64,000 nt of DNA from a virus: positions 64,001 through 128,000 of the IMG/VR virus record IMGVR_UViG_3300032401_000001; one strand, written 5' to 3'. Numbering within the stretch: the stretch's first letter is position 1; each line of letters opens with the position of its first letter. A program made the position numbers and the translations under genes. Positions 2,594 through 46,563 of this stretch are shown piece after piece. The notes beneath the pieces are model-generated. The model did no database searches. It saw only the letters and a list, made by a program, of their open reading frames with translations, and was not told the DNA's origin.

Positions 2594-2896
2594 ATGATCG
2601 CATTCAACATTGACCTCGGCAAACTGCGTGGCTTCTCGCACGACCCGTTGGCCTTCATGACGGGCTTCGTGCACGGCTACCGAGAAGGCACGGAGAAGCC
2701 GGGCAACACGGTCGATCAGACCCTCGACAAGGACGAACCCCCGGTAACGCTCGACAGCCAAGGACAGATCTTGGCCAAGGAGTACCTCCGCGGCCGCCGA
2801 CTGGGTGTCGCGGTCCTGGAGAAGCGGCGCCCGATGCCGAAGTGGGCGCACCCCAGCAACGGCACCGGTGGAAAGGGCAAGACCCGATGCCTGTGA
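2594..2896 (+). CDS. hypothetical protein
   Basis: RBS aagga, coding-like composition. Confidence 0.7.
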   Translation: MIAFNIDLGKLRGFSHDPLAFMTGFVHGYREGTEKPGNTVDQTLDKDEPPVTLDSQGQILAKEYLRGRRLGVAVLEKRRPMPKWAHPSNGTGGKGKTRCL

Positions 2897-5814: not shown

Positions 5815-6166
5815 CATCAGCCGTGGCAACCGCTGCGAGCGGTTCATCAAGGAGTTCAACGATGACGTCGTCAAGTTCTACGACGTCCCGGTCGCCGATG
5901 GCGGTCCCTTCGTTTCGGTGGGGCTGGGCGTCCACGATGTCTTCGAGCAGGTGTTCCTCTACGTGACCGTGAAATTGCCCAGCGGCGAGTACGAGCTCAT
6001 GTTCGACGACATCCTCTTCGACCCGGAAGGCCCGTGTGTGCGGGACCTCGTCGAGAGTGTCAAGCCGTACTGCCATGACGACGCCAGTGAGGCGCGCCAG
6101 CGCCTCGTGAAAGCGGAGCTGATCGATGCCGAAGAAGCCGAAGACGACGCCAAAGAAGACCCCTAG
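5807..6166 (+). CDS. hypothetical protein
   Basis: Operon gene, coding bias. Confidence 0.7.
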   Translation: MGSISRGNRCERFIKEFNDDVVKFYDVPVADGGPFVSVGLGVHDVFEQVFLYVTVKLPSGEYELMFDDILFDPEGPCVRDLVESVKPYCHDDASEARQRLVKAELIDAEEAEDDAKEDP

Positions 6167-6449
6167 CGTGACGAAGCCCAAGAAGAAACGTCGACCACGC
6201 GCCCAAGACACGCTGCAGCTACCGGTCTGGAAGACGGTCTACAAGTTCACCGTCTACAGCAACGTGCAGATCTCGGGACAAGCCAACCTCAGCCGTGTCA
6301 TCGAAGAGACACAGAGTGGCGACCTCATCGGTGAGGAGGAGCTGATCGAGTCGAAGACCATCGACCCGCGCTGCGTGCGGCGGGCACTCATCAAGATCGG
6401 CAACGACGGCACGTTCTTCGATCGCGAGCCCGACGAAGAGGACCGCTGA
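6126..6449 (+). CDS. hypothetical protein
   Basis: Lys-rich N-terminus, coding bias. Confidence 0.7.
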   Translation: MPKKPKTTPKKTPSVTKPKKKRRPRAQDTLQLPVWKTVYKFTVYSNVQISGQANLSRVIEETQSGDLIGEEELIESKTIDPRCVRRALIKIGNDGTFFDREPDEEDR

Positions 6450-6643
6450 TGCCCTGCGAAGCGGTCATCGACCTGCGACGACCCGTCCGCTCCGAGAAGC
6501 GGCGGGGCTTCCAGCCGCCTTGGTACACCGTGTACGTCTACCAGTGCCCCACCTGCCAGCGTGAAGTCACGGTGCGCGCCGGCAGCTTCCGGGGCCGCCG
6601 GCCGGAGCCCGGCGTCGGCGGCATTCGCTGCGGCGGACCATGA
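6449..6643 (+). CDS. small Zn-ribbon-like protein
   Basis: TGATG overlap; YQCPTC motif. Confidence 0.65.
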   Translation: MPCEAVIDLRRPVRSEKRRGFQPPWYTVYVYQCPTCQREVTVRAGSFRGRRPEPGVGGIRCGGP

Positions 6644-7065
6644 TCTGCGAGAAGTGCCCAGTCGCCCTGCTGTGCTTCGCCGACACGCTCGACGTGCGCT
6701 ACTGCACCCGCTGCAAAGGCCTGGTCTGCGGCGTCCCCAGCGACGATGAACGTGGCGTCAATCTATACTTGCGCATCATCGTGACGGTGCGCTGCACGCA
6801 GTACCATCTCGTACACCCCGACAAAGTTCGCCGGACGGCGCCAGCGATGACCAACTTCGACGGCTGTATCCGCTGCGATCCCATTGGTCACGCAAACACC
6901 GCGGAATTCTCACGCAGCGTCGATCACTACCACCACGGGCGTGACGGCAGCGTCTTGGGCTTCTCGCACGCCAAGTGGTGCAAGCGCGAGCGCTGGTGGT
7001 TGTACCGTGACAGCGATGAAGCGTCGCTGGGCTTCTACCTGCCCCGGCCGGTAGAGGCGCCATGA
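6640..7065 (+). CDS. 8-Cys paralogue family member 4
   Basis: MICEKCPVALLCFA...CTRC...C...CIRC. Confidence 0.8.
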   Translation: MICEKCPVALLCFADTLDVRYCTRCKGLVCGVPSDDERGVNLYLRIIVTVRCTQYHLVHPDKVRRTAPAMTNFDGCIRCDPIGHANTAEFSRSVDHYHHGRDGSVLGFSHAKWCKRERWWLYRDSDEASLGFYLPRPVEAP

Positions 7066-7292
7066 ACGACTGTGGCACCTGTCCGGCGGCGTTGTTGTGC
7101 CTGGCAAGCGACTACATCCACACCAGCTGTCAACAGTGTGGTTGCGGGGTGCATATTGACCCCTACTGCGACACGGTACTGCTTGTGCGAGAAGCGTGCT
7201 GCCAAACGCTGATAGGACGCTGGGTCTGGGGTCCTTGCTGCAGCACGAATCCCGCGTGGCAGCGCTGGAAGGTCATCGATGCCCGCACCTGA
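7062..7292 (+). CDS. 8-Cys paralogue family member 5 (short)
   Basis: MNDCGTCPAALLCLA...CQQC. Confidence 0.75.
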   Translation: MNDCGTCPAALLCLASDYIHTSCQQCGCGVHIDPYCDTVLLVREACCQTLIGRWVWGPCCSTNPAWQRWKVIDART

Positions 7293-7722
7293 GCCGAAGA
7301 ACGACTGCGGCACCTGTCCCTGGTCGCTGCTCTGTCTCGGCGACGGGTTGCTCTTCAATCGCTGCCATAACTGCCTGCGCGTCTTCCTGATGGATGGCAC
7401 CGCCCGTGCAGTATACTATCCCCCTTACGACGATCGGAACCTACTCCACAATGAAGACACGATCGAAGGTCTCGCGTACAGCTGTCCGGCGTGCCTCCCG
7501 GAGAAGTGGCTCGGCTGGCAAGTCGGCTGTGACTTCCAAGAAACGCCCGGCCTCGCGCAGCGCCGTGAAGCAGCCAGTTTCTGGGCGGGGTACCGCAAAG
7601 GTGAAGACCTCCTACGACTTTGCCGGCCTGGCGGAGAAGCTCGAAGCGCTGTCGCTGTGCTGGCATCTCCCGGCGCCGGATGCTCCAGCGCAGCTGGTGG
7701 CGCCCAGCGGACTCGAAGCTGA
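7279..7722 (+). CDS. 8-Cys paralogue family member 6
   Basis: NDCGTCPWSLLCLG...CHNC...CPAC; 3' end overlaps the next gene. Confidence 0.75.
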   Translation: MPAPEPKNDCGTCPWSLLCLGDGLLFNRCHNCLRVFLMDGTARAVYYPPYDDRNLLHNEDTIEGLAYSCPACLPEKWLGWQVGCDFQETPGLAQRREAASFWAGYRKGEDLLRLCRPGGEARSAVAVLASPGAGCSSAAGGAQRTRS

Positions 7723-38943: not shown

Positions 38944-39407
38944 TGGGACGCCTTCGCCACGGTCATACCCAGGGTGCGCGAATGACCGTTGAGTACCTGG
39001 CGTGGTGCAACATGATTCAGCGGTGTACGAACCCCAAGGTGCAGAGCTATGCTACGCACGGTGCTCGTGGGATCAAAGTTTGTGTGCGCTGGTTGACTGA
39101 TTTTCAGAACTTCCTGGCGGACATGGGACGGAAACCGCGTCCGAGTCATCGGTGGAGTCTTGAACGGAAGGACAACAACGGAGACTACGAACCTGGAAAT
39201 TGTTGCTGGGCAACTTCGAAAGCGCAGGGACGCAACAAGAGAGGTAATCGGCTATTCACCGTCTGGGGTCGAACTCAGTGCGCAGCTGCTTGGGCCGAAG
39301 AGTACGGAATGTCGAAGCAGACGCTGCGCGCACGCCTGCTCCGGGGTTGGTCGATGGAGCGGATTCTCACTACCCCAATTAAGTCGCCATTGCATCAAGC
39401 CTCTTGA
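38943..39407 (+). CDS. HNH-type homing endonuclease
   Basis: WCNMIQRC.NP...GARGIKVC.RW..FQNFLADMG...SLERKDNNGDYEPGNCCWAT...Q..N. Confidence 0.88.
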   Translation: MGRLRHGHTQGARMTVEYLAWCNMIQRCTNPKVQSYATHGARGIKVCVRWLTDFQNFLADMGRKPRPSHRWSLERKDNNGDYEPGNCCWATSKAQGRNKRGNRLFTVWGRTQCAAAWAEEYGMSKQTLRARLLRGWSMERILTTPIKSPLHQAS

Positions 39408-39432
39408 CGACGCTTTGTAGGCCGATTATCTT
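39404..39432 (+). promoter_or_regulatory. sigma70-like promoter
   Basis: TTGACG-17 nt-TATCTT. Confidence 0.55.
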
Positions 39433-39507
39433 ACGTAAAGTTACAGGTTTGTTGTGGCCTCCCTTCAGCCTCGTGTTCTTCCTCCTCCAGGCGGAAGAAT
39501 TGCTTGC

Positions 39508-39547
39508 AAACCCCCGGCGGGTGGCGCCTTGCCGGGGGTTTTCCTTT
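39508..39547 (+). terminator. intrinsic terminator-like hairpin upstream of the RRM gene
   Basis: aaacccccggc/gccgggggttt plus T-rich tail. Confidence 0.6.
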
Positions 39548-39589
39548 CTGCGCCACTTTTCGCAGTACGACCAAGGAGTGACTGAGAAC

Positions 39590-39958
39590 ATGCCCGACAC
39601 GAACCTCTACGTGGGCAACCTGCCCTGGGACATCACCAAGGAAGAGCTGGCGGCGCGCTTTGCGCAGTTCGGCGAAGTCCGTGGGGTACGCATCATCACC
39701 GACAAGGAGACGAGCCGATCGCGCGGCTTCGGTTTCGTCGAGTTCGCGCAGGCGGCCGACGCCCAGGCGGCCCTGGTCGAAGATGGCCAGGACTTCGGGG
39801 GCCGGGCGTTGCGCGTGAATCTCGCCAACCGCCAGAGCGAAGATCGACCGCGCAGCGGTAACGGCAACGGGCAGCGGCCCAAGAGCAACAGTGGCGGCGG
39901 CAAGCCCCGCGGCCACGGCGGCGGGCGTCCGCGCACGGCGTACGGCGACGAGGGCTGA
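39590..39958 (+). CDS. RRM (RNP-1) RNA-binding protein
   Basis: LYVGNL (RNP2), RGFGFVEF (RNP1), Gly/Arg-rich tail. Confidence 0.95.
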   Translation: MPDTNLYVGNLPWDITKEELAARFAQFGEVRGVRIITDKETSRSRGFGFVEFAQAADAQAALVEDGQDFGGRALRVNLANRQSEDRPRSGNGNGQRPKSNSGGGKPRGHGGGRPRTAYGDEG

Positions 39959-40044
39959 TGCTACGCGTCGTTGGTTGGTGTATCGTAGGACCAGTGCTAC
40001 TGTTCTTCACCATGGTAGTTCACGTGATGGAGTTCTTCTGCTGA
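39958..40044 (+). CDS. small hydrophobic peptide (28 aa)
   Basis: TGATG overlap; MLRVVGWCIVGPVLLFFTMVVHVMEFFC. Confidence 0.4.
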   Translation: MLRVVGWCIVGPVLLFFTMVVHVMEFFC

Positions 40045-40133
40045 TAGAGGCGCCCCACCGGGACCATCGGGGTATTCAACCGGACGTCGCCCACCGGCTA
40101 GTCACCGGCCGCTGCCTCGAAAGGGCGACACGA

Positions 40134-40469
40134 GGGCCTGAAACGGTTTCGACAGGGGTACAGAAGGCAGAGTAGCGTGCCGTGGTTGATCGGTGGGCCA
40201 CGTTAAAAGCCGATCAAAACCGAAAAGCGAACGACAACATCGTCCGCCAGCCCCTCCGCGCCGCGGCCTAGCCGAGGCGGGAGGAGCGGGGAAGCCCTCA
40301 GAGCTCCTGGCAACAGAAAGAGGGATGGTGGAGGCGCCGCAAGGCGCCCTGTAGCACCGGGTGAGGCTGGCCATACCGGTAACTACGCCAGCACGCCTCG
40401 CAAGAGGCTACGCACGTAGAAGCTCTACTGGAGTACTGCTGGACCCGGGTTCGACTCCCGGCAGGTCCA
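40134..40469 (+). ncRNA. ssrA: tmRNA; tag (A)ANDNIVRQPLRAAA at 40227-40271
   Basis: gggcctg/caggtcc acceptor with G3-U70, GGTTTCGAC D-like region, pk1, resume GCG AAC GAC AAC, TTCGACT T-loop. Confidence 0.95.
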
Positions 40470-41533: not shown

Positions 41534-41653
41534 GCGAAGCAAACCACGACGGAAACGCGGGTTCGAATCCCGCCGGGATCTCCAGGCAGTGCTGCACCCT
41601 TTGATCCTGTAGCCCAGCGGAAAGGCGCCGTCGCTCAGATCTTATCGCTTCGC
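41534..41653 (+). ncRNA. YrlA-like Y RNA 2 (circularly permuted tRNA mimic)
   Basis: T arm 41557-41573, loop-closed acceptor cgggatc/gatcctg, D arm 41612-41626, cgacgg/ccgtcg stem, outer gcgaagc/gcttcgc. Confidence 0.75.
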
Positions 41654-43085: not shown

Positions 43086-43156
43086 GGGGCCATCGTCCAA
43101 AGGGAAGATGCTGGTTCGGCAGACCAGAGATCGGGGTTCAATTCCCCGTGGCTCCA
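43086..43156 (+). tRNA. trnA: tRNA-Ala(GGC)
   Basis: G3-U70, loop tcGGCag (C33). Confidence 0.82.
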
Positions 43157-43159
43157 CGA

Positions 43160-43236
43160 GAGGTAGGAGCGGGTTCGATTCCCGCCGAGGCATCGAGCGA
43201 TGGTGCTTCGTGGTGTAACCTGGCGAGCACAACCTC
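43160..43236 (+). ncRNA. circularly permuted tRNA-like element inside the tRNA array
   Basis: gaggt, T arm (43169-43185), cgaggca, 11-nt linker, tgcttcg, D arm (43213-43230), acctc. Confidence 0.75.
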
Positions 43237-43241
43237 GTTAT

Positions 43242-43324
43242 GGAGAGTACTGGGGACGGTGACCCAACGCGGCTCGAACCCGCGGGCAGCCTCCGGGCTG
43301 GGCGTTCAACTCGTCTACTCTCCG
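43242..43324 (+). tRNA. trnS: tRNA-Ser(CGA)
   Basis: Long variable arm, loop ctCGAac, G73. Confidence 0.88.
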
Positions 43325-43330
43325 CAGCAT

Positions 43331-43403
43331 GCCGCTGAGCTCACCTGGTGGTGAGGCCCGCCTGTCACGCGGGAACCGGCGAGTTCGATCCTCGTCAGCG
43401 GCG
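43331..43403 (+). tRNA. trnD: tRNA-Asp(GTC)
   Basis: Loop ctGTCac, G73. Confidence 0.88.
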
Positions 43404-43462
43404 CCGAGCATCGGAGACCGGAACGCGTCCCGTGGGTACCCGGGCCGGAACGATGCTCATCT

Positions 43463-43554: not shown

Positions 43555-43630
43555 GCGGCCATAGTTCATTCAGTAGAACGCCGGCTTGCCAAGTCGGAGG
43601 TGCCGGGGGCAGAGCCCGGTGGCCGCTCCA
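43555..43630 (+). tRNA. trnG: tRNA-Gly(GCC)
   Basis: Loop ttGCCaa, U73, CCA; atypical T-loop ggcagag. Confidence 0.88.
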
Positions 43631-43666: not shown

Positions 43667-44062
43667 GTGCCCTACAAAGACCCTGACCAACAACGAGCAT
43701 ACATTCGAGCTTGGCGTCAGCAAAGACGGCGTACGTGGCTCACTGAACACGGACCGTGCATATACTGCAAGAGCACCCGACGTCTTGAAGTACACCACCG
43801 TGACCCAACAAAGAAGGTCACACACAACGTGTGGTCATGGTCAGAATCCCGTCGCGAAAGAGAACTCGCGAAGTGCGTCGTAGCGTGTCACCAGTGCCAT
43901 GAAAGAATCAGTACGACCGCACGAGAACCAAAGCACGGGACGAACAGTCGCTACACCAGTTACCGATACCGCTGTCGATGCACCGATTGTCACACTGCGC
44001 ACATCGCAGCAGATCGTGCATATCGACGAAAGAAACATGGAGAGGCCGACTCGCATCGGTGA
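43667..44062 (+). CDS. HNH endonuclease inserted in the tRNA array
   Basis: CIYC...LEVHHRDP...CHQCH; HGT..Y..CRC..C; lower GC. Confidence 0.85.
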   Translation: MPYKDPDQQRAYIRAWRQQRRRTWLTEHGPCIYCKSTRRLEVHHRDPTKKVTHNVWSWSESRRERELAKCVVACHQCHERISTTAREPKHGTNSRYTSYRYRCRCTDCHTAHIAADRAYRRKKHGEADSHR

Positions 44063-45101: not shown

Positions 45102-45102
45102 C

Positions 45103-45174
45103 GGGTCACGCTCTGGGTCAGCGCACTGGACTCCAAACCCGGTTGGCGGCGAGGTTCGATTCCTCGGTGACCCG
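45103..45174 (+). tRNA. trnW: tRNA-Trp(CCA)
   Basis: Loop ctCCAaa, G73; short D arm. Confidence 0.8.
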
Positions 45175-45253: not shown

Positions 45254-45324
45254 GCTCCGCGGTGCGGCGCCAGCCGGGCCTTCTAATCCCAGCACTCCGG
45301 GTTCGACTCCCGGGCGGAGCTCCA
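45254..45324 (+). tRNA. trnR: degenerate tRNA-Arg(TCT)-like gene
   Basis: Perfect acceptor and T arm, CCA; weak anticodon stem, loop ctTCTaa, reduced D arm. Confidence 0.6.
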
Positions 45325-46053: not shown

Positions 46054-46563
46054 GTGCAAACGACCTTAGTACTGGACCAATCGATGCAACCCATCAACAT
46101 CGTCTCCTGGCATCGTGCTGTCGGCATGATGCTGACGGGGTCAGCGGACGTGCTCGAAGAGTACGACCAGCTCGTGCATCCGTGGATTCAGATGCCGGCC
46201 GTCGTCCGCCTCAAGCACAACGTCAGCCGCGGCAAGCAGAAGGTGAAGTTCAGCCGCGCCAACGTGCTGATGCGGGATCGTTGCCGGTGCCAGTACTGTG
46301 GGCAGAAATTCTCGGCCCGGGAGTTGACGTTCGACCACGTCGTGCCCCGCTGCCGCGGCGGCAAGACCGAGTGGGAGAACATCGTCATGGCTTGCTGGCC
46401 GTGCAACGATGCCAAGGGTGGGCGGCTACCTCAACAGGCCGACATGCGGCTCCTCCGCGCGCCGGTACGGCCCTCGTGGGTGCCGCACTACAACCCTCGG
46501 CTGAAGACGTGCGATGTTCCACCCGAGTGGCGATGCTACTGGACGGTGGAGCTCGAGTCGTAG
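46054..46563 (+). CDS. HNH endonuclease (McrA-like)
   Basis: FSRANVLMRD...CQYCG...LTFDHVVPRCRGG...WENIVMACWPCNDAKG. Confidence 0.93.
   Translation: MQTTLVLDQSMQPINIVSWHRAVGMMLTGSADVLEEYDQLVHPWIQMPAVVRLKHNVSRGKQKVKFSRANVLMRDRCRCQYCGQKFSARELTFDHVVPRCRGGKTEWENIVMACWPCNDAKGGRLPQQADMRLLRAPVRPSWVPHYNPRLKTCDVPPEWRCYWTVELES

Follow-up and report, generated by a model that had tools for sequence, protein, structure and literature searches.

A conserved, permuted tRNA-like RNA gene without an anticodon in the tRNA array of an uncultured phage

In this work we describe a small RNA gene at positions 43160-43236 (+) of the window, the 64,000-nucleotide stretch of DNA that was analyzed, which is part of the complete 197,792-base (198-kb) IMG/VR virus record of an uncultured phage. 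Read directly off the sequence, the element is a tRNA body in permuted order, in which a 5-bp closing stem is followed by AGGA, a consensus T arm, a closed acceptor hairpin, U8-G9 and a GG-bearing D arm. It lies within a large tRNA array and is a real, conserved RNA gene. The reading we favor, with modest confidence, is that this gene encodes a permuted tRNA body with a sealed 9-bp acceptor and no anticodon, corresponding to a handle-less head of the YrlA type, and that the RNA acts as a translation-inert ligand.

All parts of the element are on the + strand, and the segments listed for it in the initial annotation proved correct to the base. The 5' strand of the closing stem, GAGGT (43160-43164), takes the place of tRNA positions 39-43 and pairs with ACCTC (43232-43236). 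It is followed by the 4-nt variable region AGGA (43165-43168) and by the T arm GCGGG-TTCGATT-CCCGC (43169-43185), which was recognized by the tRNA and YrlA consensus as well as by the fold. Its sequence is exactly that of the T-arm consensus in the Rfam tmRNA model, and it agrees with the T arm of the YrlA model as well. The closed acceptor-like hairpin predicted by RNAfold spans 43186-43210. In the tRNA register it comprises 7 bp between CGAGGCA (43186-43192) and TGCTTCG (43204-43210), the fourth of them a G.U pair. Inside the 11-nt linker (43193-43203) two extra pairs are formed between 43193-43194 and 43202-43203, so that the total is a closed 9-bp hairpin with the 7-nt loop GAGCGAT (43195-43201). 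The U8-G9 linker (TG, 43211-43212) leads into the D arm GTGT-AACCTGGCGA-GCAC (43213-43230) with its equivalents of A14, G18-G19 and A21. The last segment (43231-43236) consists of the A26 equivalent (A 43231) and the 3' strand of the closing stem. Among the tRNA landmarks the consensus T loop, U8, A14, GG and A21 are therefore all present; the equivalent of position 15/48 is A/A, which is not a standard Levitt pair. The acceptor linker is devoid of CCA, and pair 3:70 is C:G.

The minimum-energy structure calculated by RNAfold is the four-way junction including the two added linker pairs, in agreement with the initial description of four stems that pair in permuted order. The fold energy as such is unremarkable (z = -1.0). 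Since the energy alone is not exceptional, the case for the element rests on its tRNA consensus features and its conservation. Neither ARAGORN nor the Rfam tRNA model (RF00005) makes a canonical tRNA call on the element, as had been anticipated for standard tRNA finders. The initial annotation had also placed the break of the permuted gene exactly in the anticodon loop. This part does not hold, as anticodon loop and arm are absent altogether rather than broken.

The element is not a chance occurrence. A strict permuted-cloverleaf scan was set to demand a T stem of 5/5 pairs with a T-loop-like loop, an acceptor of 7/7 pairs, a closing stem of 5/5 pairs and a fully paired D stem of 3 or 4 bp with GG in its loop. 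Two matches were obtained in the 198-kb genome, namely the element and a head (41548-41632) of the RNA associated with the DUF7873 gene of the same phage. As a control, 30 dinucleotide-shuffled genomes were scanned and gave one match in total. When the two halves of the element were compared with the tRNAs of the array, the match was limited to the universal T-arm region; judged by sequence, the element is neither a recent nor a rearranged copy of any tRNA in the array.

The element occupies the gap between tRNA-Ala(GGC) and tRNA-Ser(CGA) and is thus embedded among ordinary tRNA genes, as had been noted initially. The upstream neighbor tRNA-Ala(GGC) (43086-43156, +; ARAGORN, 50 bits with the Rfam tRNA model) has its discriminator A at 43156, and CCA is not encoded. 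Between this gene and the element there is a spacer of 3 nt (CGA, 43157-43159, +), and a spacer of 5 nt (GTTAT, 43237-43241, +) separates the element from tRNA-Ser(CGA) (43242-43325, +; ARAGORN). Within the window ARAGORN counts 38 tRNAs and one tmRNA, the latter being the ordinary one-piece tmRNA of the phage (40134-40472). If the unannotated genes for Asp, Gly(GCC) and Trp are included, the array serves all 20 amino acids. No terminator-like site was found on the + strand between 41752 and 45987, an interval that brackets the element.

Furthermore, the conservation of the element was assessed in a related phage of about 77% identity. The JGI contig L067 was reached through the neighboring DUF7873 protein, which is 81% identical to that of the window, while the nucleotide sequences are about 74-80% identical. 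The gene order of L067 (RRM protein, tmRNA, DUF7873, tRNA array, HNH, HerA-like) matches that of the window, and so does the order of the tRNAs. At L067 10380-10451, in the same slot between tRNA-Ala(GGC) and tRNA-Ser(CGA), a 72-nt ortholog is found that scores 45.3 bits (E about 1e-8) with the single-sequence model R1. It has a 5-bp closing stem, a 4-nt variable region, the same T stem, UA and a D arm, and its acceptor is again a closed 9-bp hairpin, here capped by a GCGA (GNRA) tetraloop. The acceptor sequence differs between the two orthologs. The D stem of the L067 ortholog is GCUC/GAGC, the YrlA type, as compared to GUGU/GCAC in the element.

Pairing was then counted over the element and the L067 ortholog, the only diverged ortholog found. 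Standard pairs are present in 45 of the 46 pair cells (97.8%), and 8 of the 23 pairs show compensatory double changes. Two of these are located in the closing stem (of five pairs), four in the acceptor and two in the D stem (of four pairs); the T stem is invariant. The observed pairing and double-change values were reached by none of 500 shuffles, and sliding the partners by 1-3 columns as a control left 34-55% paired. The two orthologs are 63% identical, as compared to 64-82% for the neighboring genuine tRNAs of both phages, with tRNA-Ala(GGC) (98.6%) and tRNA-Ser(CGA) (100%) as exceptions. An identity of 63% with the helices kept indicates that the element diverged like a working tRNA gene. 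The initial annotation had linked a lack of conservation to a rearranged pseudogene. Instead, the search in related phages revealed conservation with compensatory changes in the same slot of L067, as well as an identical copy on the independent metagenome contig L077.

YrlA RNAs (Rfam RF02553; Chen et al. 2014, PMC4201824; structure by Wang et al. 2018, bioRxiv 10.1101/312249), which also occur in actinobacteria and mycobacteriophages, contain a tRNA-like domain that has been likened to a circularly permuted tRNA whose acceptor stem is closed (PMC4201824; bioRxiv 10.1101/312249). Their heads take the tRNA fold, and an elbow-reading effector has been proposed as the ligand (bioRxiv 10.1101/312249). 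The GNCGAAN0-1G motif in the 5'/3' handle of YrlA is taken to contact Ro60, and in the YrlA of M. smegmatis, which has a 7-bp stem, RNase P cuts in the acceptor loop (PMC4201824). The element has the same head topology, consisting of outer stem, short variable region, T arm, closed acceptor stem-loop and D arm, and it keeps the T-stem sequence GCGGG/CCCGC. It differs from YrlA in its D stem, which is not the conserved GCUC/GAGC, and in its ends, which adjoin tRNAs, would be set by the processing of these neighbors and carry no handle. When the element was searched alone, the Rfam YrlA model aligned its head (positions 26-82) to 43164-43231 and left positions 1-25 and 83-114 unmatched; the score of 16 bits (E = 0.32) compares to a gathering threshold of 69 bits. 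An 8-kb scan around the element yielded no YrlA match. No GNCGAA motif was read in 43157-43241, and with tRNAs on both flanks and only the head aligned, the earlier remark that the long Ro-binding stem of YrlA is lacking was confirmed. A TROVE/Ro60 gene was found neither in the complete 198-kb phage record, in which positive controls were detected, nor in five large relatives. Our preferred interpretation is that the element is a YrlA-type tRNA mimic that stands alone and has no handle for Ro60 binding; by the definition of the YrlA family, it is not a member. In their survey, Chen et al. set aside candidates that overlapped tandem tRNA genes and retained only RNAs at most 4 kb from Ro60 (PMC4201824), so that elements in such slots fell outside that survey. 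Handle-less, array-embedded permuted modules were not found described in the literature searched.

The two-headed tRNA-mimic RNA of DUF7873 in the same phage (41330-41760) shares the permuted tRNA-body module with the element, and its head at 41548-41632 scores 28.4 bits with model R1. This long multi-domain RNA is linked to a protein gene and has a terminator at its end, whereas the element is a single minimal module within the array. Two-piece tmRNA, the product of permuted ssrA, is likewise a bacterial permuted tRNA-like gene that is processed within the acceptor linker. Characteristic features of tmRNAs are a tag reading frame, pseudoknots and the alanine identity pair G3:U70. The element has neither a tag frame, for which 85 nt are too short, nor pseudoknots nor G3:U70. 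Of the element, tmRNA models matched only the 17-nt T arm (RF00023), and the match of the permuted-tmRNA model RF04321 lies away from the element, at 40014-40271.

With regard to biogenesis, the element is probably co-transcribed with the tRNA array, as no terminator-like site on the + strand lies nearby. An RNase Z-type cut after tRNA-Ala together with an RNase P cut before tRNA-Ser would then release an RNA of ~85 nt, with RNase P at the 5' end of tRNA-Ser setting the 3' end of the element. The released RNA would fold into the tRNA L-shape. Sealed at its acceptor and lacking an anticodon, it should be neither charged nor able to decode, and would consequently act as a translation-inert ligand, i.e. 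as a decoy, sponge or tether. Its target may be a factor that recognizes the tRNA elbow and the acceptor/T helix; candidates are a host defense nuclease targeting the tRNA body, or the effector of host YrlA RNAs. A decoy function is something that we purely infer. A decoy for factors reading the tRNA body is plausible, whereas a decoy for anticodon nucleases, one of the functions proposed initially, is unlikely because the anticodon loop is absent.

Other explanations have to be weighed against that of a sealed, inert ligand. The product of the gene might be a two-piece, CCA-tailed tRNA-like RNA. RNase P would cut the acceptor loop before U43204, and the upstream piece would be trimmed to U43193 and receive CCA, resulting in an anticodon-less split 'tRNA' with a free acceptor that might be chargeable. 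Opening by RNase P and CCA addition have been reported for the YrlA of M. smegmatis (PMC4201824), and the host of the phage is probably an actinobacterium, because the closest cellular DUF7873 homologues are those of Streptomyces and Micromonosporaceae. In both orthologs, however, the helix runs two pairs past 1/72, which together with the 4-nt GCGA cap in L067 weakly favors a closed hairpin. Moreover, there is no G3:U70, no long variable arm and no other anticodon-independent identity set, and the orthologs do not share their acceptor sequence, so that we consider a two-piece RNA unlikely. The head topology and the T stem shared with YrlA would also suit a handle-less Y RNA that serves a host Ro60/Rsr particle, either through another contact or by competing with the host YrlA for the effector. 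The YrlA-type D stem of the L067 ortholog and of a second, 78-nt module (see below), the handle-bearing YrlA-like RNAs of the distant relatives G021 and G027, and the combination of Ro60 and in-array modules in the mycobacteriophage Myrna point in this direction. The missing GNCGAA motif and handle speak against it, as does the missing TROVE gene in the phage and its five large relatives, and we regard a role in a host Ro60 particle as distinctly improbable.

The element might alternatively be a non-functional relic, left behind when each of two tRNA gene copies in tandem lost its outer half, e.g. via homing-endonuclease breaks in the array, so that a 3' half and a 5' half of the same tRNA gene remained. 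Homing endonucleases cut within tRNA genes and thereby drive the rearrangement of phage tRNA regions (PMC13096335). Two HNH genes are located inside the array (one at 43667-44062, assigned by eye only, and a clear one at 46054-46563), a tRNA-Asp followed by a duplicated 5' half in Myrna is a possible intermediate, and the content of the slot differs in L078. Nevertheless, the array holds no parent tRNA, and pairing in 45 of 46 cells together with eight compensatory double changes was kept at 63% identity. In addition, both boundaries coincide exactly with the ends of the closing stem, and what would be former spacer forms two extra pairs in both phages. We therefore give the relic slightly less credit than the Ro60-related role. 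Permuted tRNA genes of Cyanidioschyzon merolae and of some archaea resemble the element in that the 3' half comes first, a linker closes the acceptor and the ends pair as an anticodon stem; they give rise to decoding tRNAs by means of a BHB motif, splicing endonuclease and ligase. Maturation of this kind by cleavage and ligation had been proposed initially. The RNA would be circularized at its open ends to form an anticodon loop, and opening of the acceptor would yield a decoding tRNA as in C. merolae. The gene order fits, with the 3' half before the 5' half and the linker at the acceptor end, and the ends produced by RNase Z and RNase P, a 5'-phosphate and a 3'-OH, would be suitable for ligation. 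However, the element cannot form a canonical anticodon loop: the joined loop would comprise 8 nt (GUUAU+CGA, GUUAUCGA) with C at position 37 instead of the canonical 7 nt with U33 and a purine at 37, and the L067 flanks (CGUAU with G or CCAG) would create a different loop and a different 'anticodon'. The enzymes needed are not evident either. Genes for the RNA ligases RtcB and Rnl2 were not found in the phage genome, and to our knowledge bacteria lack the splicing endonuclease that permuted tRNA genes require. The acceptor is closed, its linker provides no CCA, and all 20 amino acids are already served by the array. On the grounds of the non-canonical, unconserved 8-nt loop, the complete amino acid coverage and the missing RtcB and Rnl2, a decoding permuted tRNA was rejected as extremely improbable.

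Returning to the translation-inert ligand, it is conceivable, although we hold this wider view only tentatively, that phages with large arrays carry genes for a family of tRNA bodies that stand free and are inert in translation; released by tRNA enzymes, these would serve as decoys or sponges for a host factor reading the elbow and the acceptor/T helix, such as a defense nuclease that cleaves the tRNA body or the YrlA effector. If true, this family would constitute an RNA-based counter-defense or host-takeover device that has been overlooked by every tRNA finder. The tRNA arrays of large phages are usually read as decoding supplements or as spares against tRNA-cleaving defenses. A conserved, covarying, non-decoding occupant of a slot indicates that the output of tRNA operons includes tRNA-shaped RNAs with a different task. 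It further suggests that Ro60 can be dispensable for a Y-RNA head to function, and is relevant to the question of what such a head binds. The class is probably under-counted, as the element escapes ARAGORN and the thresholds of the Rfam tRNA and YrlA models, and overlaps with tandem tRNAs were excluded from the YrlA survey.

A counterpart in a cultured phage, Mycobacterium phage Myrna (host M. smegmatis), opens the way to bench testing. In NC_011273.1 the 80-nt gap between tRNA-Asp and tRNA-Met (94338-94417) shows the same fold; its acceptor hairpin is capped by GAAA, and its D loop ends in CUGGCGA, as in the element. The unannotated elements in gaps of the Myrna array further include a handle-bearing YrlA-like RNA and the tRNA-Asp with a duplicated 5' half, a possible evolutionary intermediate. 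The coordinates given for the array-gap elements and the Ro60/TROVE gene of Myrna are 94338-94417, 92689-92827, 95152-95260 and 131411-132430, and the Ro60/TROVE gene is 37 kb away from the array. In G025, whose polymerase is about 40% identical and which has 37 tRNAs, two tRNA-Pro genes flank a permuted module that has a long acceptor arm and lacks the handle. The YrlA-like RNAs of G021 and G027 have long handles and are located near the tmRNA. The relative L080 has almost no tRNA array.

In these comparisons model R1 was noisy in arrays, where tandem-tRNA junctions reach scores of up to about 26 bits. For this reason only matches in tRNA-free gaps that fold as a four-way junction were accepted; R1 matches in coding DNA of L041 and L042 were dismissed as spurious. 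A MAFFT alignment of eight modules was structurally inconsistent and was left out of the pair counts. When the element and the second module were compared with GenBank phages by BLAST, the matches were confined to the T or D arms of ordinary tRNAs. Neither the element nor tRNA-Ser(CGA) was found in IMG/VR by exact-word scans, and a DUF7873 peptide scan of IMG/VR gave no match either. In the 99%-identical IMG/VR relatives L003 and L004 the tRNA array is outside their coverage, and most of the DUF7873 or HerA-like neighbors taken from a large protein collection were without an adjacent array.

Downstream of tRNA-Ser(CGA), the contigs L078 and L079 share about 90% identity with the window, with individual tRNAs at 100%; upstream of it they belong to a different lineage. 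In their Ala(GGC)|Ser(CGA) slot (L078 2611-2712; L079 2883-2984, minus strand) they carry a different, 102-nt tRNA-like RNA. It has the normal tRNA order, a 7-bp terminal stem, two T-arm-like hairpins and an extra hairpin, and matches only the tRNA-Sec model, weakly (17 bits). The element is thus replaceable. We had at first considered the slot to be a cassette that is rapidly exchanged between tRNAs of unusual conservation. This idea lost ground, since 63% identity is ordinary for the array; what is left of it is that this third lineage holds a different RNA in the slot. Directly after tRNA-Ser(CGA), L077, L078 and L079 contain the second permuted module of 78 nt (L078 2799-2876; L077 about 419-496; L079 about 2720-2798, minus strand). 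Its acceptor hairpin of 7 bp has a UGCA loop, its D arm is of the YrlA type (GCUC/GAGC) and its 8-nt T loop is aberrant; it scores 29.7 bits with the head of the YrlA model. This module is missing from the window at 43325|43330, although the contigs are otherwise 90-100% identical to the window, and is a presence/absence polymorphism between near-identical phages. In L077 permuted modules are found on both flanks of tRNA-Ser(CGA). This tRNA is 100% identical in the three lineages represented by the window, L067 and L078, as compared to 64-82% for other tRNAs, and the gene in the window scores higher with the tRNA-Sec model than with the tRNA model.

Several further observations concern the surroundings of the element. 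Four tRNA genes of the array are unseen by ARAGORN (43332-43406, 43555-43627, 45102-45174 and about 45254-45322). In this order, the first is Asp(GTC), which has A8 and a D stem of 3 bp, and the second is Gly(GCC). The third, Trp(CCA), has an anticodon stem with an A.C mismatch at its base, and the last resembles Arg(UCU) but is unusual in its D region. The two small endonuclease-type genes inside the array could drive its rearrangement. The one at 46054-46563 has a clear HNH domain; the one at 43667-44062 has no Pfam match, shows Cys/His HNH-like motifs by eye and is missing from L067. In the 169-kb DUF7873-bearing phage contig L073 (ENA), a TROVE/vWA Ro60 gene (6018-7628) is located about 2.4 kb upstream of DUF7873 and has a PNK/phosphatase-like gene (AAA_33 + Metallophos) upstream of it; at about 5 kb on the downstream side of DUF7873 there is a gene for an Rnl2-type RNA ligase. 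This layout indicates that in some relatives DUF7873 loci are linked to RNA-repair and Ro60 modules. Finally, the phage encodes a protein with a eukaryote-type RRM_1 RNA-recognition motif (39404-39958, E = 7e-23), whose gene is syntenic just upstream of tmRNA, DUF7873 and the tRNA array in the window, L067 and L080, and which is a candidate partner for these RNAs.
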